Positions 39,151 through 49,718 of a DNA stretch of 64,000 bases are shown here, piece after piece. This DNA is from Flavobacteriales bacterium (GTDB lineage: Bacteria > Bacteroidota > Bacteroidia > Flavobacteriales > Flavobacteriaceae). Location of the stretch: NCBI GenBank assembly GCA_031408335.1, contig JANNWH010000014.1:8784-72783 (forward strand), in the 5' to 3' direction. Made by a program: the position numbers and the translations under genes. The notes under the pieces are model-generated. The model made no database searches, was not told the origin of the DNA, and was given only the letters and a program-made list of their open reading frames with translations. How positions within the stretch are numbered: position 1 is the first letter of the stretch; every line of letters begins with the position of its first letter.

Positions 39151-39774
39151 TTAATTAATCAAGCTAGTAATTTCTTCACTCATCGGAGTAATTTTAGATG
39201 GAAATACAGCTATTAATTCACCATTTTCATTAATTAGGTACTTTTGAAAATTCCATTCTACTGTACTATCTTCTAAACCATTTTTACCTTTTTGAGTTAA
39301 AAACTCATAGATATCACACTTATCTTTTCCGTCTACTGATACTTTTTCCATCATTGGAAAAGTAACTCCGTAATTTTTAGTGCAAAATGCTTTAATTTCC
39401 TTATTTGTACCAGGCTCTTGACCACCAAAATTGTTTGTAGGAAATCCGACAATTACAAAATTTTCTTTTATATATTTTTGATATAACTCTTCTAATTCTT
39501 TATATTGAGGAGTATAGCCACATTCTGATGCAGTATTAACAATTAGTATTTTTTTTCCTTTTAGTTTTAGAAAATCAAATTCTTTTCCGTCAATATCTTT
39601 TACTTTGTATGAATAAATAGTAGGCTTGTTCATTGTTTTTGTACTTTTTGTTTCTACAGATTTAGTATTAGAAATAGGTGAAGTTGTTTGTAATTTATTT
39701 TTATTATCCTGAGCATTGCTTTGATTACAAAATAGAACTACTACACCACAAATTAAAGAAAATAAATTTTTCAT
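39151..39774 (-). CDS. Exported glutathione peroxidase family protein
   Basis: VNTASECGYT, GFPTNNFGGQEPG, WNFQKYLI; signal peptide. Confidence 0.92.
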   Translation of the reverse strand: MKNLFSLICGVVVLFCNQSNAQDNKNKLQTTSPISNTKSVETKSTKTMNKPTIYSYKVKDIDGKEFDFLKLKGKKILIVNTASECGYTPQYKELEELYQKYIKENFVIVGFPTNNFGGQEPGTNKEIKAFCTKNYGVTFPMMEKVSVDGKDKCDIYEFLTQKGKNGLEDSTVEWNFQKYLINENGELIAVFPSKITPMSEEITSLIN

Positions 39775-39940: not shown

Positions 39941-42154
39941 TTAAAATCTGTACGTTACTTTTCCTTTTAAAAAGAAAGGTGTTCCAGGAGTAAAATGAAT
40001 TTCTTCAACACTTTCTGATTCGTTTTGCAATTGCGATTCGGTTGCAAATTGCGTTTCATTCCATTTGGTATTAAAAATGTTTTCTGCAGAAATTCCGAAA
40101 GTGATATTTTTATAATCATAATTTAAATTTAAATCAGAAACCATATAGCCTTTGGCTACAATCGAATTGTCTTCGTTTGCTGGACGCGATTTTAAATAAC
40201 GATAATGAAATCCGCCTGAAAAACCTTTATACTTAGTTAAATTTAATCCAGCTGTAGAAGTAAAATCGGGTGCTAACGGAATAAAATCTTGTCCTTTTGG
40301 TTCGTCTATACTTCTTCCATAAGTATAATTTAAATCGGTATCAAAAAACAAGTAATTGGTGAGTTGGTAACGCAATCCAAAATCGATTCCTAGTCTACGT
40401 GATTTTCCGCTTGGCTCTACTATTCCGGCATCGCCAACATAAACAAATTCTTGTTCTAAATCTAAAAACCACAGCGCAGTATTGACTATGAGTCGTGGAA
40501 AAGGTTTAAAAATAGTTCCCAAGTCAACACCTAATGCAGTAGGCAAAATTGATTTTCCAGATTGCTCTACAACAACACGAGTATCATTAGAATGGAAACC
40601 TAAACCTGATTTTAAAAACAACTGAAAATTAGCATTTTGCGAATAGATAAAATTTAGTTTTGGAGATAATTTTACTTTATCTTCACTTAGCGTTTTATAA
40701 TTAATAGCTAATTTGTCTTGGTAATTAAACTTAAAATAATCAAATCTTATTGCTGGATTTATTTTTAGTTTACCAAAATCAAATTCCGAATTTAAATACG
40801 AGAAAATAGTGGTTTGATCGATATCACCTAATTTCAAACTCACTAATGTTGTACTTCTATTAACTGTGTGTGAAAGTTCGGTATTGGTTGTTTCATCTGC
40901 TCGAAATCCGAATCCAAGTTGAAATAAAGCTTTAGAATTATTAATTGTAACTTTTTTATTGACTTCTGAATTCAAACCATAAATATTTCTACTTTCTTTT
41001 TGTCGGATTTGATCACCGTTAATTGGATCCTCTAAGAAAAAGGTGAAATTTGAATACAATTCGAAATCATAATTAGAATAAAACGCATTCGATTTCACAA
41101 AAGTTGTTTCATTAATTGGCTTAGTGTAGGCAATATTAAAATTAGTTCGTGAGGTTTTTCCGCCTTCAGTATCATCAACAGAGCCAAATCTGGAAATAGA
41201 ACCGTTATCGATTAATCGTTGCGGAATTTGACCAGAAGCATCCCATTTACTGGTAAAACGCGATCCAATAATTGATATCTTACTGTTGTTATTTAAAACA
41301 CTGGTGTATTTTCCGAACAGATTAATTCGTTTAAAGTTTTGAGGCGAATCAAACGGACCATCTGTTAAAACATATTCGGTTGCAAAATAGGCGTTTTGAT
41401 TTTTCTTGTTTTCTAAAAGATTAAAAATTCCAACAGTTCGTATCGTATTAAATTGACCTGCTTCGATACTTATTGCGCTTTTATCAAATTTTTCTTTAGT
41501 TTGAAAAGCCACATAACCAGCCGTCGCAAAATCGCCTTTATCAGCATAATAAGTTCCTTTACCATAGTCGATTTTTTCAATGGTTTCTGGAATCACAAAA
41601 TGCAAATCGGCGTAACCTTGTCCGTGCGCATGTGAAACCATATTTACCGGCATTCCGTCAACAGAAATCGCAATATCAGTTCCGTGATCGATATCAAAAC
41701 CACGCAGGAAAATTTGCTCTGCTTTGCCTCCACCAGCATGCTGACCGATGAATAATCCGGGTACTTTTCGCAAGATTTCTTGAGAAGAATTTACCGGATT
41801 TGTTTGCAAATCAATTTTAGATATTACATTCATTGCGTTCAATTTTGATTGAATAACGACTTCATCTAATTTATAATTATCTAATTCTAAAACTATTCTT
41901 ATTTCGTTTGAATTAACCGTGTAATTTATTTTTTTGTAACCTAAACATGAAATGATAAGGATATCATTTATTGCTGTTTTATCGATAAAAAACTGACCAA
42001 ATTCATCTGTATGAGCGTGCGATTGAGAAGCTGAATTAACAATGTATGCGTTTTCAATTGCAATTGAATTACTATCTAAAACAATACCTTTTTGAATTTG
42101 ACTGTATGAAGAAAACATAATAAACATAAGAGCTAATGATAAAATTGATTTCAT
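39941..42154 (-). CDS. TonB-dependent receptor with HAHGQG plug motif
   Basis: LRKVPG, QHAGGGKAEQIFLRGFDIDHG, VSHAHGQGYADLHF; C-terminal YRF. Confidence 0.92.
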   Translation of the reverse strand: MKSILSLALMFIMFSSYSQIQKGIVLDSNSIAIENAYIVNSASQSHAHTDEFGQFFIDKTAINDILIISCLGYKKINYTVNSNEIRIVLELDNYKLDEVVIQSKLNAMNVISKIDLQTNPVNSSQEILRKVPGLFIGQHAGGGKAEQIFLRGFDIDHGTDIAISVDGMPVNMVSHAHGQGYADLHFVIPETIEKIDYGKGTYYADKGDFATAGYVAFQTKEKFDKSAISIEAGQFNTIRTVGIFNLLENKKNQNAYFATEYVLTDGPFDSPQNFKRINLFGKYTSVLNNNSKISIIGSRFTSKWDASGQIPQRLIDNGSISRFGSVDDTEGGKTSRTNFNIAYTKPINETTFVKSNAFYSNYDFELYSNFTFFLEDPINGDQIRQKESRNIYGLNSEVNKKVTINNSKALFQLGFGFRADETTNTELSHTVNRSTTLVSLKLGDIDQTTIFSYLNSEFDFGKLKINPAIRFDYFKFNYQDKLAINYKTLSEDKVKLSPKLNFIYSQNANFQLFLKSGLGFHSNDTRVVVEQSGKSILPTALGVDLGTIFKPFPRLIVNTALWFLDLEQEFVYVGDAGIVEPSGKSRRLGIDFGLRYQLTNYLFFDTDLNYTYGRSIDEPKGQDFIPLAPDFTSTAGLNLTKYKGFSGGFHYRYLKSRPANEDNSIVAKGYMVSDLNLNYDYKNITFGISAENIFNTKWNETQFATESQLQNESESVEEIHFTPGTPFFLKGKVTYRF

Positions 42155-43449
42155 TATAATTGCACTATTTTGTTAGTGTAAATTGGACCAAGTTCATATT
42201 CACTTCCTTTTAATTCTTCTTTAATTAATGCTACTTCATCACCCTTTTTATTGGCTTTATAAATTACCGCTAGATGATAATTGAGCATTGGTTCGAATGA
42301 TTTTCCATAAACATATTGCTGTGCAATTTCAAATGCTTTTTTGGTATCACCAACATTAAAATATGCCCAAGCCAATAAATCATACGAATCTGGAGTTGGT
42401 CGTTGTGCTACTTCAATTTTAGCAATTTCTAGTGCTTTTGAAGCTGTTATTTTATCATCAGCATAAATTAAAGTATTGTATTTATTATACATCGCACCAT
42501 ATTTAGTATTCTCAAGCATTTTGAAATATTTATCTAAATTTTCTTTTTTATCTGAAGTATTATTTTCAAATTGAGCAATTTTTGATTTTAATAAATAAAA
42601 ATCGGGTGTATCATGTTTTTGAGAAATTTTATCAATAATTCGTTTTGCTTCTGCAGTATTTTTTTCGTGAGAAAATGCAATCCAAGCAATTCCTTTTAAA
42701 GCATAACTATGATTGGGTTCTAATGCTAATGTTTTTAGATAATAATTATAAGAAGCATTTATGTTTCCGTCATGACCATTTAAATCACCTAAATTAGAAT
42801 AAGTCCATTTTATCAGATCTTTATTTTCGTTTACCTCAGCAACGATTTTAGCTTTTTCCATAAAAGAAATAGCTGTTTTTAAATCGCCTTTGTGATCGCT
42901 CCATTTTGAAATTCTAATTAAATAATCAAAATCTTTAAAATCTTTAATTGCATTCAGGTTTTTTTCAGCTTCTGAATAATTCCCTAATTCCATATTGACA
43001 TCAAAAAGCAATTTCTGAGTTTCTTTCATTCCTTCACCAATAGCCAAAGCTTTATTAGCTAAAACTAGTGCTTCTTTAAATCGATGTTGCGAAATGTAAT
43101 TTCTGGCTAAAGAACGAATAGTTCCTACAATTGAATATTTATAGGTTTCATTAGATTTTATTAATAATTCTTCTGTTTTAATTAAATAATCAATGTTTCC
43201 AGTAATTTCAAAAAGCTTAGAATAGTTGGATGCTATTGGACTTAAAAAAGTAATTTGATTTGGAGTAGCATCGAATTTTTTTTGCCAAAAATCGATTTCA
43301 CTTTTAGCAAAGTCGAGTGATTTACTGTCTTTACTATCTAAATATTTATTATAATCGTTTTGATTTGTAATTTGATTTGATTTTGATTCACAACTTATTA
43401 TGCTATAAGAAGCAAAAACAAGGATCAATAGTTTTTGTAGCGTTTTCAT
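42154..43449 (-). CDS. TPR-repeat lipoprotein
   Basis: Lipobox IISC; helical TPR pattern; overlaps the TBDR start. Confidence 0.85.
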   Translation of the reverse strand: MKTLQKLLILVFASYSIISCESKSNQITNQNDYNKYLDSKDSKSLDFAKSEIDFWQKKFDATPNQITFLSPIASNYSKLFEITGNIDYLIKTEELLIKSNETYKYSIVGTIRSLARNYISQHRFKEALVLANKALAIGEGMKETQKLLFDVNMELGNYSEAEKNLNAIKDFKDFDYLIRISKWSDHKGDLKTAISFMEKAKIVAEVNENKDLIKWTYSNLGDLNGHDGNINASYNYYLKTLALEPNHSYALKGIAWIAFSHEKNTAEAKRIIDKISQKHDTPDFYLLKSKIAQFENNTSDKKENLDKYFKMLENTKYGAMYNKYNTLIYADDKITASKALEIAKIEVAQRPTPDSYDLLAWAYFNVGDTKKAFEIAQQYVYGKSFEPMLNYHLAVIYKANKKGDEVALIKEELKGSEYELGPIYTNKIVQL

Positions 43450-43479: not shown

Positions 43480-43509
43480 AACAGAGCGCAATAAGTACTG
43501 CGCTCTGTT
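43480..43509 (-). terminator. Hairpin after DUF4331 lipoprotein copy 2
   Basis: AACAGAGCGCA-ataagtac-TGCGCTCTGTT. Confidence 0.7.
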
Positions 43510-43519
43510 ATTATTTATA

Positions 43520-44065
43520 CTACCAAGAAGCAGCTAAATAAGGAAATGATGGTAAAAATGCTTTATCATTAGCATTTACGTTATCCGAAGTTAATGTTGG
43601 ATTCAAAGCATTCGTTGGTCCACCAAAAATTAAAATCAATTCCACATCAATTACATCATCAGCTAAGCCTCTACCTGTTAAAACTTGTGTTCCGTTATAG
43701 AAAGAAGTAGGTCCGGTTTTTGCAACACCTAGAACATCAGTTGCTAAAACACCTGTAAAAGCAGCAGCATCTAATCCGAGTAAGTTTGTAGTATAACCAG
43801 GATTCAAAGCTAATAATCTTGACTGAAAAATAGGTTGATAAGTAGCACCCTGAGCTGAAGGAATTGCTAAATTAAATGCATCTTTTGGAGCACCAGATGC
43901 AATAAAAACAGTATTAATTGCTGGACGTGCCATTTGATCTTTTAGTAAATAAGTTCCTGAAAAATCGGTTTCTGCTGCTGGAGCATCATCATCATTATCA
44001 CAACTTGTAAATGCAACAGCTGTTAAAACAGATAACACTATTACTTTAAATTTATTTGTCTTCAT
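43520..44065 (-). CDS. DUF4331-like lipoprotein (C-half motifs), copy 2
   Basis: Lipobox FTSC; DQMARPAINT, GRGLADDVID, FPYLAASW. Confidence 0.8.
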   Translation of the reverse strand: MKTNKFKVIVLSVLTAVAFTSCDNDDDAPAAETDFSGTYLLKDQMARPAINTVFIASGAPKDAFNLAIPSAQGATYQPIFQSRLLALNPGYTTNLLGLDAAAFTGVLATDVLGVAKTGPTSFYNGTQVLTGRGLADDVIDVELILIFGGPTNALNPTLTSDNVNANDKAFLPSFPYLAASW

Positions 44066-44091: not shown

Positions 44092-44745
44092 TTATTGTTT
44101 TTGTTTTGTTTCTGCCCAAACATTAATGGTTGCAGATGTACCTAACATCGATTTTGGAACTTCAATTATTGTAGCTAAAACATTTGTGCCAGCAAAACTG
44201 TCGGTTCCAGGATTACTAAATCCGCCGGGTGATGTTCCTGCTAAAATTGATCTGAATTTGTTTAAATCAAAAAAGAAAGGATCGTCTCGTGGACCAGCAA
44301 AAAATTTCATTCCGTTTTGTGTTGCAATAATTGGAGCACTTCCGTAAGTAGAAATATCTACATTTCCAGAAGGAGCATTAGTTTTAACAGTACTTGAAAC
44401 GCCTGTTGTTCCTGGAGCAGTTGGTCCGAAGAAATACATTTTGTTTCCTCTTTTAATAGCTTGGATAACTAAATCTTCAACATTGTCGCCATTATTATCA
44501 ATATTAAGTTCAATCATTACATTCTCATTGAATGCAGCAGCAGCAGTAGCTCCTGGAGTTAATAAACCTTGGGTATTTATTGCAAATACCATGTTGTTAG
44601 TGTCTTGCCCTTGAAAAGCGTACACATCGGTAATGTCATTTGCATTACCTGTTACTGCTGGCGCATCTGCGTGATCGGCAGCAATAAAAATTAGACCTGA
44701 AATCGCAACTAACGATAGACCTACGAACATTTTTGTTTTTTTCAT
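44092..44745 (-). CDS. DUF4331 family protein (N-half motifs), copy 2
   Basis: ADHADAP, DITDVYAF, GPRDDPFFFD, DSFAGTNV. Confidence 0.85.
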   Translation of the reverse strand: MKKTKMFVGLSLVAISGLIFIAADHADAPAVTGNANDITDVYAFQGQDTNNMVFAINTQGLLTPGATAAAAFNENVMIELNIDNNGDNVEDLVIQAIKRGNKMYFFGPTAPGTTGVSSTVKTNAPSGNVDISTYGSAPIIATQNGMKFFAGPRDDPFFFDLNKFRSILAGTSPGGFSNPGTDSFAGTNVLATIIEVPKSMLGTSATINVWAETKQKQ

Positions 44746-44774: not shown

Positions 44775-44804
44775 ATATACGAGTAAAAATTGTTTTTGGT
44801 TTTA
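44775..44804 (-). promoter_or_regulatory. Candidate ECF promoter
   Basis: TAAAACC-N16-CGTATAT on minus strand. Confidence 0.65.
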
Positions 44805-44835
44805 ATAATTGAAAAAATATTATTTTAATTGAAAA

Positions 44836-44867
44836 AATCAGAGTGCAATACTTATTGCACTCTGATT
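44836..44867 (-). terminator. Hairpin after DUF4331 lipoprotein copy 1
   Basis: AATCAGAGTGCAATA-ct-TATTGCACTCTGATT. Confidence 0.75.
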
Positions 44868-44875
44868 AATTTATT

Positions 44876-45448
44876 TTACCAAGCTGACGCTAAGTAAGGA
44901 AATGAAGGCAAAAAAATTTTGTCATTTGAATTAACATTATCCGATGTTAATCCAGGATTTGAAGCACCAGTTGGTCCGCCAAAAACTAATAATAAATCAA
45001 CATTAATCACATCATCTGCCAAAGCTCTTCCTGTTAAAATATTAGTACCATCAAAGAAAGTAGTTGGAGCAACTTTACTAACATTCAAAACATCTGTTGC
45101 TAACAATCCAGTTAATTGAGAAGCTGTTTGACCCAATGCATTGGTAGTATAACCTGGATTTAAAGCTAATAATCTTGACTGAAAAACACCTTGATAAGCA
45201 GCACCCATTGCAGATGGAATAGCAAAGTTAAATGCATCTTTCGGTGCTCCAGAAGCAATAAATACTGTATTTGTAACTGGTCGTGCCATTTGATCTTGTT
45301 GTACATAGGTACCTGAAAATTTTCTTCCCGGTCTAGCTAATTGATCAGTATTAGTCTCGTCTATACTATCATTATTATCACAACTAACAAAAAGAGCTGA
45401 TAAAGAAATAAATGATAAGGCTATAATTTTAAAATTTAATGTTTTCAT
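44876..45448 (-). CDS. DUF4331-like lipoprotein (C-half motifs), copy 1
   Basis: Lipobox FVSC; DQMARPVTNT, GRALADDVIN, FPYLASAW. Confidence 0.8.
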   Translation of the reverse strand: MKTLNFKIIALSFISLSALFVSCDNNDSIDETNTDQLARPGRKFSGTYVQQDQMARPVTNTVFIASGAPKDAFNFAIPSAMGAAYQGVFQSRLLALNPGYTTNALGQTASQLTGLLATDVLNVSKVAPTTFFDGTNILTGRALADDVINVDLLLVFGGPTGASNPGLTSDNVNSNDKIFLPSFPYLASAW

Positions 45449-45471
45449 TTTATATTTTTTATTTAAATTAA

Positions 45472-46122
45472 TTATTGTTTTCTATTAGTGGTCGCCCAAA
45501 TGCTAATTGTAGAGGAATTACCTAACATTGATTTTGGCAACTCAATTATAGTTGATAACACATTTGTACCCGCAAAACTGTCTGTACCAGGATTACTAAA
45601 CACAGTTGAAGTACCTGCTAAAATTGATCTAAATTTATTCAAATCAAAAAAGAAAGGATCATCTCTTGGACCAGCAAAAAATTTCATCCCATTTTTAGTT
45701 TTGATAATTGGATCACTTCCATAAGGTGTAATTTTTACTTTTCCAGATTCTTCACGATCATCAATTTCGCTGTTTACTCCTGTAGACTCTGGTGCATAAG
45801 GACCAAAGAAATACATGTCTTTTTTGTCTCTAATAGCTTGGATAACTAAATCTTCAACATTATCACCATTCGTGTCAATGTTAATTTCTTGCATAACATT
45901 TTCGTTAAAAGCAGCAGTAGCAGTAGCTCCTGGCGATAACAATCCTTGGGTATTTACTACAAATACCATGTTGTTGGGATCTTGCCCTTGAAAAGCATAC
46001 ACATCGGTAATGTCATTTGCATTACCAGTTACAGCTGGAGCATCTGCGTGATCGGCTGCCATAAAAACCAGACCTGTAATCGCCACCAGCGACAGAACTA
46101 ATACAATCTTTGTTTTTTTCAT
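45472..46122 (-). CDS. DUF4331 family protein (N-half motifs), copy 1
   Basis: Same motifs as 44092-44745. Confidence 0.85.
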   Translation of the reverse strand: MKKTKIVLVLSLVAITGLVFMAADHADAPAVTGNANDITDVYAFQGQDPNNMVFVVNTQGLLSPGATATAAFNENVMQEINIDTNGDNVEDLVIQAIRDKKDMYFFGPYAPESTGVNSEIDDREESGKVKITPYGSDPIIKTKNGMKFFAGPRDDPFFFDLNKFRSILAGTSTVFSNPGTDSFAGTNVLSTIIELPKSMLGNSSTISIWATTNRKQ

Positions 46123-46150
46123 TTTAATTAATTTAAAGGGTTAAAAATAG

Positions 46151-46180
46151 ATTTACGAGAAAGCTTACCATTTGGATTTA
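46151..46180 (-). promoter_or_regulatory. Candidate ECF promoter
   Basis: TAAATCC-N16-CGTAAAT on minus strand. Confidence 0.65.
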
Positions 46181-46274
46181 TAAAACATAAAATAATTCGC
46201 AAACATCTGTTTTACAATATTTTATAAATTATTTTTTATAAATTAATTTTGTTTTGAAAAAAAAATTATATTTA

Positions 46275-46304
46275 TAAAACCAAAACAAAAAAACTCTCGT
46301 ATAT
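46275..46304 (+). promoter_or_regulatory. Candidate autoregulatory ECF promoter
   Basis: TAAAACC-N16-CGTATAT upstream of the sigma gene. Confidence 0.65.
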
Positions 46305-46331
46305 GTTCACAACAACAAAAAAACAAAAACA

Positions 46332-46862
46332 ATGAGTCAAGAAGAATTAATTCCGTTAATCCTTAAGAAGGATGAACGGGCGTTTACTATCCTATATGAT
46401 ATGTATTCGAAGAGTTTATTTTCGGTAATTTCAAATTTTTTAAAAGAGAGCGAAGATGCTGAAGATGTTTTACAAGAAGTATTTGTGAAAATATGGAAAA
46501 GTATTGATAGTTATAATGAAAGTAAAGGAAGGCTATATACTTGGATGCTTAATATTGCAAGGAACACTTCAATTGATAAATTGCGCTCTAAAGGATTCAA
46601 CAACAGTCAAAAAAACCTATCAGCAGATAATTTCGTACATCTATTGGACGACAGTAACAAATTAATCAATAGGATCGATACTATTGGAATTCGAGAATTT
46701 GTTGCTAAATTAAAACCAAAGTGTATTCAATTGATTGAATTATTATTCTTTCAAGGATTTACACAACAAGAAGCTTCCGACGAATTAGAAATTCCGTTGG
46801 GAACTGTAAAAACGCAAAATAGAAATTGCATCAATGATTTAAGAACCTATTTAAAAGTATAA
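46332..46862 (+). CDS. ECF RNA polymerase sigma factor (SigK-like)
   Basis: AEDVLQEVFVKIW, WMLNIARNTSIDKLR, EIPLGTVKT. Confidence 0.93.
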   Translation: MSQEELIPLILKKDERAFTILYDMYSKSLFSVISNFLKESEDAEDVLQEVFVKIWKSIDSYNESKGRLYTWMLNIARNTSIDKLRSKGFNNSQKNLSADNFVHLLDDSNKLINRIDTIGIREFVAKLKPKCIQLIELLFFQGFTQQEASDELEIPLGTVKTQNRNCINDLRTYLKV

Positions 46863-47650
46863 TGAGTACAATAGAAACAATAAATTCAGGCGATTTAGAG
46901 CTTTACGTTTATGGTGTATTAAACGAAAATGAAATGAATCAAATTGCAGAACTATCAAAATCAGATAGTGCAATAAAAAACGAAATTATATCGATTGAGA
47001 ATAGTATTTTACAATTATCCAGTAGCTTTTCTCCTACCATTTCTTCAGAAATTTATGAAAAAATTAAAACTAAATTAGGTTTAAAACCTGTTAGTATTGT
47101 TACGATGAAACCAAAATCAAATCTTTCGCAATATTTAAGTTGGGCAGCATCTTTAGCATTGTTAATTGGAATTGGTTATCAATACAACAAACAAATTACT
47201 ACCGAAAATAAAATAGTAACTATAGAAAAAGAAAAAGTAAAATTGAACGAGGCTGTTGCAACTTCTGAAGGTAAAATAAAAGAAACAAAAGCAGCTTTAG
47301 ATATTATTAGAGATACCAAAAACACCGTTATAACTCTTGGCGGACAAGCAGTTTCTCCAACATCGTATGCAAAAGTATATTGGAATAAAGAAACTCAAGT
47401 AGTTTATGTTGATGCTGCTGGATTACCAGAACCTCCAACCGGAATGGTATATCAAGTTTGGTCACTAAAATTGAGTCCGACTTTAACACCAACAAGTATT
47501 GGATTATTAGAAGATTTCAAATCGGATAACAATAGGATTTTTGCTGTAAGTACTACTGGCGATGCCGAAGCATTCGGAATTACATTAGAACCAGCTGGTG
47601 GAAGTAAAACGCCAACAATGGAACAATTATATGCATTAGGAAAAGTGTAA
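46862..47650 (+). CDS. RskA-type anti-sigma factor
   Basis: LELYVYGVL N-terminus, one TM, LPEPPTGMVYQVW, AFGITLEPAGGSKTPT. Confidence 0.9.
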   Translation: MSTIETINSGDLELYVYGVLNENEMNQIAELSKSDSAIKNEIISIENSILQLSSSFSPTISSEIYEKIKTKLGLKPVSIVTMKPKSNLSQYLSWAASLALLIGIGYQYNKQITTENKIVTIEKEKVKLNEAVATSEGKIKETKAALDIIRDTKNTVITLGGQAVSPTSYAKVYWNKETQVVYVDAAGLPEPPTGMVYQVWSLKLSPTLTPTSIGLLEDFKSDNNRIFAVSTTGDAEAFGITLEPAGGSKTPTMEQLYALGKV

Positions 47651-47773: not shown

Positions 47774-48016
47774 TTAAGGATTCTCTTCCCATAATTTTTT
47801 TACAGCTTCCCAAACCTTCATTCGTAATTCATCCCGACGAAAAACACTATTGTTTGTTGTATATTTTTCAAGTGTTTCTTGTAATAGCTGTAGTTCTTTT
47901 GCTACAGCAGGATAATCATGACACATGATTTCTACTTTTTTTTCTTCTTCATTTGTAAGTACTCCAAGGCAATAATCTTGAAGTATCCCACTTGTGATAT
48001 AGTTTCCTATATTCAT
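47774..48016 (-). CDS. Stand-alone anti-sigma-domain-like protein (80 aa)
   Basis: YITSGILQDYCLGVLTNEE resembles the N-terminus of the 46862 anti-sigma; follows a sigma gene. Confidence 0.7.
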   Translation of the reverse strand: MNIGNYITSGILQDYCLGVLTNEEEKKVEIMCHDYPAVAKELQLLQETLEKYTTNNSVFRRDELRMKVWEAVKKLWEENP

Positions 48017-48065
48017 TTGTTTATTTTATTATTTAATAGTATGCGAATTATAAAAAAATAACTTT

Positions 48066-48686
48066 CTATTGTTGATAAAGCATTTTTAACAAACTAAGTC
48101 CTTTTCTTGCTCTAGTTTTTATTGTTCCCAATGGCAACTTTAAAATTTCAGCCGTTTGTTCTTGTGTCCAGCCATAAAAGTAAATTAAATCAATCACTTC
48201 GGAATATATTGAGTCAAGTTGTAATGCTTTGTTTTTAAAGTCAGAAAATTCTATAGAGCAACTGTTTAAAATTGTATTTCCAATAGTATCCTTACAATGA
48301 GAAAAAAAATCAATTTCTACTTGAAGCTTTTGATTCCGATAACTTGATGAACGTAAGTAATCAATGGCATGGTTTCTAGCTATATTTAACATCCAAGTAT
48401 ATATAGAACCTTTAGAATTGTCATAACTACCAATGTATTTCCATATTTTTACAAAAGTATCTTGCAATAAATCATCAGCTACTTCTGTTCGTTTAACAAG
48501 TTTTATAATCACTCCATAAAGTGCTCCACTATACATAGTATATAAAGTGTGAAAGCCTCTTTCGCTTTTAGATTGAACCAGCTTTACTAGTGAATCAAGA
48601 TCATTATTTGAGTTACAAAACTTAGTATCGCTACTTTTAAATACTGTTATAACTTGTCGTTTTGAATAAGTAGTTGTTGCTATCAT
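48066..48686 (-). CDS. Second ECF sigma factor
   Basis: ADDLLQDTFVKIW, WMLNIARNHAIDYLR, LPLGTIKTRAR. Confidence 0.9.
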   Translation of the reverse strand: MIATTTYSKRQVITVFKSSDTKFCNSNNDLDSLVKLVQSKSERGFHTLYTMYSGALYGVIIKLVKRTEVADDLLQDTFVKIWKYIGSYDNSKGSIYTWMLNIARNHAIDYLRSSSYRNQKLQVEIDFFSHCKDTIGNTILNSCSIEFSDFKNKALQLDSIYSEVIDLIYFYGWTQEQTAEILKLPLGTIKTRARKGLSLLKMLYQQ

Positions 48687-48908: not shown

Positions 48909-49718
48909 ATGCAGGAAAATAGTTTGAGAAAGATGCAGGATGCAGATTTCCTGTATAAAAAGATTGTTGCCATGTCATCTTCGTTTTTTATGAACGATAC
49001 TATTGGAGAGGTAGAACGATTTAGAGAAGAAGCGAATCTGCTACTTAACGGAATAAGAGGTACCGATGCGGTTATTGGGATATTTGATCACCTCAATTAC
49101 ACTCCAGTTTTAGAAGTAGGAGAAAAAGAATTTTGGGGTGAACTTCCCGAAGTACCTCAAGCTGAGAGAATGATTCAGATTATGAGCTTGCTTGAAAAAG
49201 AGTATTTGACTTTTTTTACCGATTCCGTAAAGTGGTTCACTGGAATGCTAGAGGAGATTCCTTTTGCTCAAAGAATGAACATACAAATCTTTCACTGTGG
49301 CATTAGATACACGCTTTTGGATGGCAAACCAATCTGCCTTTTTTCGAAAGGTTCTCCAATTCATTACGATGAAAATAGGAAATTTAATTACACATTTAAT
49401 TATGTTCAAAACATCAATCACCTTCTTAAAAAGAATTTTAGGGAATATTGGATACGGATCTCACATGGAGAAAACAGTGAATATATTCACACATTTCATT
49501 CCCAAGATAAACTGTATTCCAATAAAGATTTATTGTCTGTAAGGGAAAAAGAGATTTTAAGACTAATCGCTGATGATTTGGATACAAAAGAGATAGCTGA
49601 AAAATTATTTATTAGTATAAATACCGTTGGTAATCATCGTGGAAAGATGATTGACAAAATGGGAGTTAGAGATTCAACGGCATTGGTACAAATGGCAAAA
49701 ATGTCTGGAATTATATAA
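48909..49718 (+). CDS. LuxR-family regulator with uncharacterised N-terminal sensor domain
   Basis: C-terminal LSVREKEILRLIA...IAEKLFISINTVGNHR. Confidence 0.88.
   Translation: MQENSLRKMQDADFLYKKIVAMSSSFFMNDTIGEVERFREEANLLLNGIRGTDAVIGIFDHLNYTPVLEVGEKEFWGELPEVPQAERMIQIMSLLEKEYLTFFTDSVKWFTGMLEEIPFAQRMNIQIFHCGIRYTLLDGKPICLFSKGSPIHYDENRKFNYTFNYVQNINHLLKKNFREYWIRISHGENSEYIHTFHSQDKLYSNKDLLSVREKEILRLIADDLDTKEIAEKLFISINTVGNHRGKMIDKMGVRDSTALVQMAKMSGII

Follow-up and report, generated by a model that had tools for sequence, protein, structure and literature searches.

We examined a 64,000-nucleotide stretch from a Flavobacteriales bacterium of the Flavobacteriaceae (GenBank assembly GCA_031408335.1, contig JANNWH010000014.1, positions 8,784 to 72,783 of the forward strand; hereafter the window), in which a bipartite sequence, TAAAWCC-N16-CGTAWAT, stands upstream of a gene for an extracytoplasmic function (ECF) sigma factor and of two tandem pairs of DUF4331 genes. 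The sigma gene, which we call sigA (46332..46862, +), encodes a SigK-like protein of 176 residues with Pfam matches to Sigma70_r2, r4 and ECF, and its best relative in the PDB is SigK of Mycobacterium tuberculosis (4NQW, E-value 3e-15). SigA has exactly two cysteines, C131 and C166, both invariant in 50 of 50 orthologues. The sigA stop codon is overlapped by the ATG of rskA (46862..47650, +), which encodes a 262-residue single-pass anti-sigma factor with an RskA_C ectodomain (PF10099, E-value 1e-17, 65 bits vs. a cut-off of 29.4). A second SigK-like sigma gene in the window, sigB (48066-48686, -), encodes 206 residues that are 43% identical to SigA.

Divergent from sigA lies the first DUF4331 unit, consisting of an N-terminal chain of 216 residues with a Sec signal peptide (45472..46122, -; PF14224 model positions ~1-238) and a C-terminal chain of 190 residues with a lipoprotein signal ending in FVSC (44876..45448, -; PF14224 ~368-420). 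It ends in a strong intrinsic terminator (44836..44867, -; a 14-bp stem followed by a T run), which stands between unit 1 and the putative promoter of unit 2. The second unit repeats this organization, with an N-terminal chain of 217 residues (44092..44745, -; PF14224) that is 77% identical to its counterpart in unit 1 and a C-terminal chain of 181 residues with a lipoprotein signal (43520..44065, -; PF14224). The gap after unit 2 holds a hairpin (43480..43509, -) homologous to the unit 1 terminator, which may bring about only partial termination, and beyond it lie genes assigned by Pfam to a tetratricopeptide repeat (TPR) protein (42154..43449, -) and a TonB-dependent receptor (39941..42154, -), with a terminator past the end of the latter. 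We found no solved relative in the PDB for either DUF4331 chain, and a literature search on DUF4331 or PF14224 returned no papers. The split into a chain with a Sec signal and a chain with a lipoprotein signal recurred in all ten genera examined besides being present in this genome (loci L154-L162), from which we take the split to be ancestral and not the mark of a pseudogene. Two tandem units were seen only in this genome among 46 sampled genomes of the genus, and the duplication took in both the promoter and the terminator hairpin.

An exact search of the whole window for TAAAWCC-N16-CGTAWAT returned exactly three matches, at 46275-46304 (+) before sigA (TAAAACC-N16-CGTATAT), at 46151-46180 (-) before DUF4331 unit 1 and divergent from sigA (TAAATCC-N16-CGTAAAT), and at 44775-44804 (-) before unit 2 (TAAAACC-N16-CGTATAT), the last lying just past the unit 1 terminator. 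Dinucleotide-preserving shuffles of the window gave a mean of 0.02 matches, and three or more were reached in 0 of 100. The spacers (AAAACAAAAAAACTCT, AAATGGTAAGCTTTCT and AAAAACAATTTTTACT) are all 16 nucleotides long and unrelated in sequence, and the last base of the motif stands 27 nucleotides before the ATG of the sigma gene (46332), 28 before that of unit 1 (46122) and 29 before that of unit 2 (44745). A sequence-only reading of the window, made before this analysis, had reported three copies with 16-nucleotide spacers of differing sequence, each about 28-29 nucleotides before an ATG; the exact search bore out the copies and their spacers, and the distances were right. Its count of three is correct for exact copies, but it missed a diverged fourth copy inside the sigma open reading frame at 46611-46640. 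When one or two mismatches were allowed the motif was not enriched over the control, so only the full motif is informative. A scan with a generic sigma-70 consensus gave 45 matches vs. 50 expected, such a consensus being uninformative in Bacteroidota.

The genome as a whole (2.88 Mb, 31% G+C) contains the exact motif five times at a spacer of 16 and zero times or once at each other spacer from 12 to 21, and versions with one mismatch were no more frequent than the reversed control. To the whole genome we applied a weight matrix built from 26 orthologous sites, which gave four sites scoring from 28.7 to 35.6, with the next best at 18.7. The copy before sigA had the highest score in the genome (35.6), the copies before the two DUF4331 units scored 31.0 each, and the fourth site (C19:19731-19760) stands on another contig, unlinked to the window, 31 nucleotides before the ATG of a gene (C19:19792-20358) for an exported fasciclin protein of 188 residues (PF02469, E-value 3e-34). 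The sequence-only reading had proposed the motif as a direct handle on the regulon, and the genome-wide scan bore this out by finding these four intergenic promoter candidates; since they are the only strong sites in the genome, the predicted regulon is compact, as it is in mycobacteria. Two further candidates were set aside. The fifth exact match (C9:174232-174261, -) scored 17.0 and lies 132 nucleotides from the nearest open reading frame, with no terminator or stable fold found after it, and we did not count it in the regulon. A near-motif at C9:163072-163101 (+), which had the score of 18.7, stands 45 nucleotides before an open reading frame of 252 residues; its TCG in place of TCC breaks the invariant CC, and we rejected it as unproven. 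The N-terminus of that open reading frame looks YaaA-like.

We then looked at relatives, using 24 genomes of the same genus for the exact motif, 46 genomes of the genus for the fasciclin and DUF4331 genes, and 80 named Flavobacterium genomes, including that of F. johnsoniae, as an independent set. The exact motif occurred 40 times in the 24 congeners vs. 15 times for the reversed control. Matches lay 24-32 nucleotides before the ATG of orthologues of the fasciclin gene (nine genomes), of the DUF4331 N-terminal chain (three) and of the sigma gene (one), and also before genes for a few other exported proteins. All 40 belonged to the 17 sigA-bearing genomes, and the seven without the gene had none (P ~6e-5). 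The fasciclin orthologue was likewise present only in genomes with a SigK-like sigma factor (Fisher P = 3e-7), and DUF4331 occurred in 11 of the 46 genomes, always adjoining sigA (P = 0.003). Among fasciclin orthologues of at least 67% identity for which upstream sequence was available, 23 of 24 had A(A/T)CC-N16-CGTAAAT 24-42 nucleotides before the ATG; in the single exception the -10 box is a CGTT variant, and two stop codons lie within that genome's copy of the sigma orthologue. Six fasciclin paralogues of 55-66% identity had nothing like the motif upstream.

The consensus of these sites can be written TAAAACCAAA-N13-CGTAAATG, or in extended form TAAAACCAAA-N13-CGTAAATG-N4-TATA, in which the T before AAA, the AAA after CC and the AT(G) after CGTA are conserved positions that the selection pattern did not impose. 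AAC(C)-N16-CGTA is present in the three window sites, the fasciclin site and the 26 orthologous sites, with invariant boxes and a free spacer. In the named genomes a divergent motif stands beside sigA in 47 of 80; DUF4331 is divergent to sigA in 19 of these 80, and 18 of the 19 have the motif. In nine other genera a DUF4331 N-chain, C-chain and TPR cluster, in part with the receptor, adjoins sigA-rskA in convergent orientation, and eight of the nine have AAACC-N16/17-CGTA(A/G)(A/G)T upstream of the N-chain gene. Because the cluster is convergent in those genera and divergent here (ten genera in all), both linkage and motif have survived rearrangement.

Relatives showed some further variation around these promoters. 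In seven of the nine genera (L154, L156, L157 and L159-L162) a conserved element TTAAC-N6-TTAAC, not seen in the window, precedes the -35 box of this promoter by 0-15 nucleotides at the DUF4331 genes and may be bound by a second regulator. At four congener loci (L044, L065, L069 and L057) other genes stand 26-68 nucleotides behind exact copies of the motif, namely those for a conserved membrane protein of 142-144 residues without a Pfam family (in two species), a DUF4394 lipoprotein and a double-fasciclin lipoprotein; because such genes follow exact copies, the regulon appears to vary between species.

The form of the motif agrees with what is known of ECF promoters, which are defined by a -35 AAC and a -10 CGT about 16-17 nucleotides apart (PMC8103513). 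In the present motif TAAAACCAAA (core AACC) forms the -35 element and CGTA(A/T)AT(G) (core CGTA) the -10 element, with 13 free bases between the extended elements and 16 nucleotides from CC to CGTA, and the motif always points one way, towards the gene. ECF sigma factors are commonly co-transcribed with an anti-sigma factor and are often autoregulated (PMC8103513). ECF18, together with ECF19 and ECF214, forms a clade with RskA-like anti-sigma factors (PMC7826278), and the consensus predicted for ECF18 is xGCATCC / xxCGTATx (PMC13492112, Table 4). The window boxes, AA(A/T)CC and CGTA(T/A)AT, are an AT-rich rendering of that consensus; the -35 box ends in (A/T)CC, like that of ECF18, and the -10 box is CGTAT-like. 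We therefore read the motif as the promoter for RNA polymerase carrying the SigK-like SigA, with four intergenic targets and an internal site for rskA, and put the probability of this reading at roughly 85%; both the start sites and the dependence on the sigma factor are inferred from sequence. In this the proposal of an ECF promoter made in the sequence-only reading is well supported, by the boxes, the spacer, the orientation, the distance to the ATG, the likeness to the ECF18 consensus, the conservation at orthologues and the co-occurrence with the sigma gene. Start sites were predicted from F. psychrophilum, in which ECF promoters with mapped starts have the form AAC-N16-CGT and +1 lies 12 nucleotides after the C of CGT in two examples (PMC9723704). 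Applied here, this places the starts near 46310 (+) for sigA, with a leader of about 22 nucleotides, near 46145 (-) and 44769 (-) for the DUF4331 units, and near C19:19766 for the fasciclin gene, with leaders of 22-26 nucleotides overall.

Several observations weigh against this reading. Although the best NCBIfam model for SigA is SigK (PRK09646), the match reaches only 104 bits vs. a curated cut-off of 226, and the two cysteines of SigA do not align with C133 and C183, the redox-switch pair of the M. tuberculosis protein, lying in the phmmer alignment 8 residues past the former and 7 residues before the latter. The spacer of 16 is not preferred genome-wide for the shorter patterns AAWCC-N16-CGTAW and AWCC-N16-CGTA, and because the first of these shows no genome-wide enrichment, weak members of the regulon are not callable. 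The likeness of the two DUF4331 promoters is in part due to the tandem duplication of the units. The upstream copy that would make sigA autoregulatory is missing in most relatives (75 of the 80 named Flavobacterium genomes). Finally, in two congeners without sigA, G119 and G111, a fasciclin gene that carries essentially the same motif has another SigK-like sigma factor, 47% identical to SigA, encoded next to it.

We considered whether the three copies in the window could be a by-product of local duplication together with chance in AT-rich intergenic DNA, having no function. The DUF4331 units are tandem paralogues (77% identity) with homologous terminator hairpins, and their upstream regions are for that reason homologous as well. 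However, only the boxes are conserved between the copies, the spacers having diverged; the sigA and fasciclin sites are independent of the duplication, and conservation over ~100 genomes and ten genera is beyond what chance or a local duplication would give, so that we regard this explanation as effectively refuted. It is also very improbable, to our judgement, that the motif is a conventional transcription factor site without promoter function, for example for the product of the LuxR-type gene at 48909-49718. Conservation upstream of co-regulated genes would be expected of the site of any regulator, and the TTAAC-N6-TTAAC element just upstream of the motif in other genera indicates that further regulators probably exist. 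Against this, the motif is asymmetric, always oriented towards the gene and fixed at 24-32 nucleotides from the ATG, its two halves match the canonical -35 and -10 boxes of ECF promoters in both form and spacing (PMC8103513), no other recognizable promoter stands between motif and genes, and the motif co-occurs with a sigma gene across genomes.

A further question is which sigma factor would read the promoter: it might be SigB, instead of or alongside SigA, with overlapping specificity. The overall identity of 43% includes a region 2.4 in SigB that is near-identical to that of SigA (WMLNIARN) and a similar region 4.2, and the sigma factor beside the fasciclin gene in G119 and G111 is in the G119 copy 50% identical to SigB. 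Yet none of 45 sampled congeners has a close orthologue of sigB (best 50% identity), and motif and targets are nonetheless conserved in them, in step with the presence of sigA, which argues that SigA is sufficient and the likely reader. Moreover, sigB has no motif before it, and its product lacks the two cysteines; the gene also lacks the internal site, and its partner is an anti-sigma fragment of only 80 residues. We consider a role for SigB in reading the motif unlikely, its being the sole reader unlikely in particular, and cross-talk from it plausible; co-occurrence across genomes points to the RskA-linked SigA as the likely reader. At the sigB locus (span 47774-48686, -) the 80-residue open reading frame that follows sigB had no Pfam match, and its N-terminus reads like an anti-sigma domain with no membrane or sensor part. 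A parallel is found in Nocardia, in which SigK likewise lacks the cysteines and is paired with a truncated RskA of 81 residues (PMC7509140). As for G119 and G111 themselves, their loci (L163, G119:C1:354830-356705; L164, G111:C22:138538-140451) have the sigma gene and an RskA-like partner divergent from the fasciclin gene across a gap of ~0.8-0.9 kb, an arrangement close to the classical mpt83-sigK-rskA cassette, and the G119 copy has an internal motif. Since the sigma gene of these genomes adjoins a fasciclin gene with the same motif, the specificity seems to be shared across the clade.

The sequence-only reading took the pattern to be that expected of an autoregulated ECF promoter. This stands for the present genome, in which the motif does lie upstream of sigA, but does not extend to the group, as the motif is upstream of sigA in only 5 of the 80 named Flavobacterium genomes and at 0 of 22 sigma orthologue loci in other genera. 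It was found in the closest relatives (L071, L072, L055 and L165-L167, sigma identity 85-93%) and in two further species. In 27 of the 80 genomes an exact match to TAnnTTTG, the -7 box of the housekeeping sigma factor in F. psychrophilum (PMC9723704), stands 15-33 nucleotides before the sigA ATG, mostly at 20-22, compared with a background of 6%. The -7 box and the ECF motif were never found together upstream of sigA, and because the box occupies this region in other species, a positive-feedback promoter seems to have recently replaced a housekeeping promoter in this lineage.

The conserved site across sigA loci is not the upstream copy but the intragenic one. This copy (46611..46640, +) reads AAAAACC-N16-CGTACAT, has two mismatches to the pattern and lies where the gene encodes residues 93-103, in the linker that joins sigma domains 2 and 4; it was present at 72 of the 80 named Flavobacterium loci and is absent from sigB. 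We tabulated codons in 50 sigA orthologues from the genus and the family (45-100% amino-acid identity), which gave 57 conserved columns with synonymous choices. N95 was encoded by AAC in 50 of 50, whereas two other conserved asparagine columns had AAT in 74-76% and a third had AAT and AAC equally; F101 was TTC in 49 of 49, with TTT at 78-86% in the other conserved phenylalanine columns; V102 was GTA in 50 of 50, with GTA at 40% in the other conserved valine columns; and L96 was CTN in 44 of 48, the other conserved leucine columns being mixed, with TTA or TTG common. N95, F101 and V102 were the only columns among the 57 with a single codon, and they correspond to the bases of AAC-C and C-GTA, AAC and TTC being minority codons elsewhere. 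Codons between the boxes varied freely. By chance, the three columns under the strongest constraint would all be among those four with a probability of ~1e-4. Synonymous positions at the internal site are thus constrained. SigK-like paralogues (in other genera and G119) have A(A/T)CC-N16-CGTATAT in the corresponding position, although the residues encoded there differ (EIQ...NVY vs. KNL...FVH), and because they keep the boxes and not the residues, selection acts on the DNA.

A transcript from the internal site would start at ~46646, 216 nucleotides before the rskA ATG, and because no in-frame methionine codon follows the site in sigA, it would encode RskA alone. The site is probably a sigma-dependent promoter for rskA alone, providing negative feedback. 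A precedent is rseA P3 of E. coli, a sigma-E-dependent promoter inside rpoE that starts 228 nucleotides before rseA and yields an rseABC transcript (PMC8595263). The two systems share an internal site in the sigma open reading frame beside an upstream sigma-dependent promoter, and both would uncouple synthesis of the anti-sigma factor from that of the sigma factor. They differ in that the present sigma factor belongs to another ECF group with RskA and not RseA as its anti-sigma factor, that the function proposed for its internal site follows from synonymous-site conservation, and that the internal site is the sole sigma-type site at the locus in most Flavobacteriaceae.

Taken together, these data suggest the following mechanism. 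SigA would normally be held by the membrane anti-sigma factor RskA and released by a signal from outside the cytoplasm, possibly redox in nature. Free SigA would then fire its own promoter, those of the two tandem DUF4331 units and that of the unlinked fasciclin gene on contig C19; with the four intergenic promoters, all products would be exported proteins. A weight-matrix scan and a local check found no motif upstream of the TPR gene, and transcription from the unit 2 promoter probably reads on into the TPR and TonB-dependent receptor genes, whose place in the regulon is suggested by the conserved gene order. The internal site at 46611-46640 would most likely start an RskA-only transcript and so close a negative feedback loop, as at rseA P3, while the upstream copy at 46275-46304 would add positive feedback as a recent acquisition of this lineage.

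The system is another case of an already known type, the SigK/RskA-type ECF promoter and regulon. The classic targets of mycobacterial SigK are the fasciclin proteins MPT70 and MPT83, and reports of a cassette mpt83-sigK-rskA whose SigK site is conserved extend even to Gram-negative bacteria (PMC7509140; PMC4105308). As in M. tuberculosis, we found a SigK-like sigma factor with an RskA_C anti-sigma factor directly downstream, a very small predicted regulon that includes an exported fasciclin, and a putative promoter of its own at the sigma gene (in this strain). Unlike in M. tuberculosis, the boxes are of a low-GC Bacteroidota type (TAAAACC / CGTAAAT), there is no linkage to the fasciclin gene, the main targets at the locus itself are genes for split DUF4331 chains, a TPR protein and a TonB-dependent receptor, which are unreported for mycobacteria in the literature cited here, the two conserved cysteines in sigma domain 4 do not align with C133/C183, the upstream promoter is absent in most relatives, and there is an internal site in the sigma open reading frame. 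Another comparison is SM6, the SigECF motif of F. psychrophilum, which belongs to the same genus and has the same AAC-N16-CGT geometry, distinct from the housekeeping box. SM6, however, has (G/A)(T/C)AAC without CC at -35 and targets that include type IX secretion system genes, and thus represents a different regulon. In the supplementary listings examined, the ECF sigma factors of F. psychrophilum are classed as ECF21, ECF22 and ECF03, and no fasciclin gene appears.

Some features of the neighbourhood, here and in relatives, stand apart from these subjects. Directly past the TonB-receptor terminator and on the same strand the window has a glutathione peroxidase gene (39151-39774, -; PF00255, E-value 2e-40), with no motif upstream, which may bear a relation to oxidative stress. 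In 11 other genera (L014, L019, L021, L022, L026, L027, L030, L031, L033, L035 and L036) a gene for a lipoprotein of ~190-230 residues lies directly upstream of sigA-rskA; one such protein was confirmed as a Cu/Zn superoxide dismutase (PF00080, E-value 1e-37), and the others have the same C-terminal motif. Two genera have a YceI-like gene in this place instead, and no motif was found before either the sodC-like or the YceI-like genes. A superoxide dismutase-type neighbour together with two invariant cysteines in the sigma factor may hint at a connection with oxidative stress.

Relatives also contain copies of the motif with no open reading frame behind them. In five other genera (L016:2869-3009(-), L029:2875-3014(-), L032:2967-3107(-), L023:2845-2977(-) and L024:274-407(+)) a copy lies just past the DUF4331/TPR cluster, convergent with rskA, and is followed over ~115 nucleotides by two hairpins, a conserved unpaired UUCAGAGUUUUUUUGUUAGUUG and a GC-rich terminator. 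Compensatory changes were seen in 12 of 26 predicted pairs, making this element a candidate sigma-dependent small RNA; an nhmmer search found no copy of it in the present genome. In six Flavobacterium loci without DUF4331 (L077, L080, L085, L087, L094 and L099) the divergent motif is kept with no open reading frame of at least 60 residues within 500 nucleotides downstream, and in three of the six (L077, L080 and L085) a hairpin, GCTATTAT...ATAATAGC, starts right after the -10 box. These copies could be orphan promoters or could drive a small RNA or a small peptide. Searches of Rfam returned no family at threshold for either the small RNA candidate or the orphan promoters.

A more far-reaching interpretation, which we advance tentatively and rate at slightly less than even odds, is that the linker-coding stretch in SigK-like sigma genes of the Flavobacteriaceae doubles as a deeply conserved, sigma-read promoter for the anti-sigma gene, and that this, and not the upstream promoter, is the ancestral feedback element, positive autoregulation being recent and having replaced a housekeeping promoter. 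The same sigma factor would co-ordinate a fasciclin with an uptake-like module of split DUF4331, TPR protein and TonB-dependent receptor, with a small RNA added to these in other genera. If true, it would for the first time open both the function of DUF4331 and the signal of SigK-type systems to genetics, and the intragenic site would serve as a textbook-quality example of synonymous codons held in place by a regulatory element. It would also suggest that more ECF systems than is generally recognized have feedback of the rseA P3 type.

Widespread as SigK/RskA systems are, no activating signal has come to light for them since their description in mycobacteria. What the present locus offers is SigK/RskA logic in the Bacteroidota, with a tiny predicted regulon, a fasciclin target, an RskA anti-sigma factor and a clean, easily mutated promoter. 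Conservation of both the sigma factor and the promoter extends across the genus, whose genetically tractable member F. johnsoniae has a sigma orthologue (strain CI04, locus L188). DUF4331, the TPR protein and the TonB-dependent receptor are tied to this sigma factor in at least ten genera, which provides a route to induce and study them, and the ECF regulons of the Flavobacteriaceae appear to be readable with a simple weight matrix.

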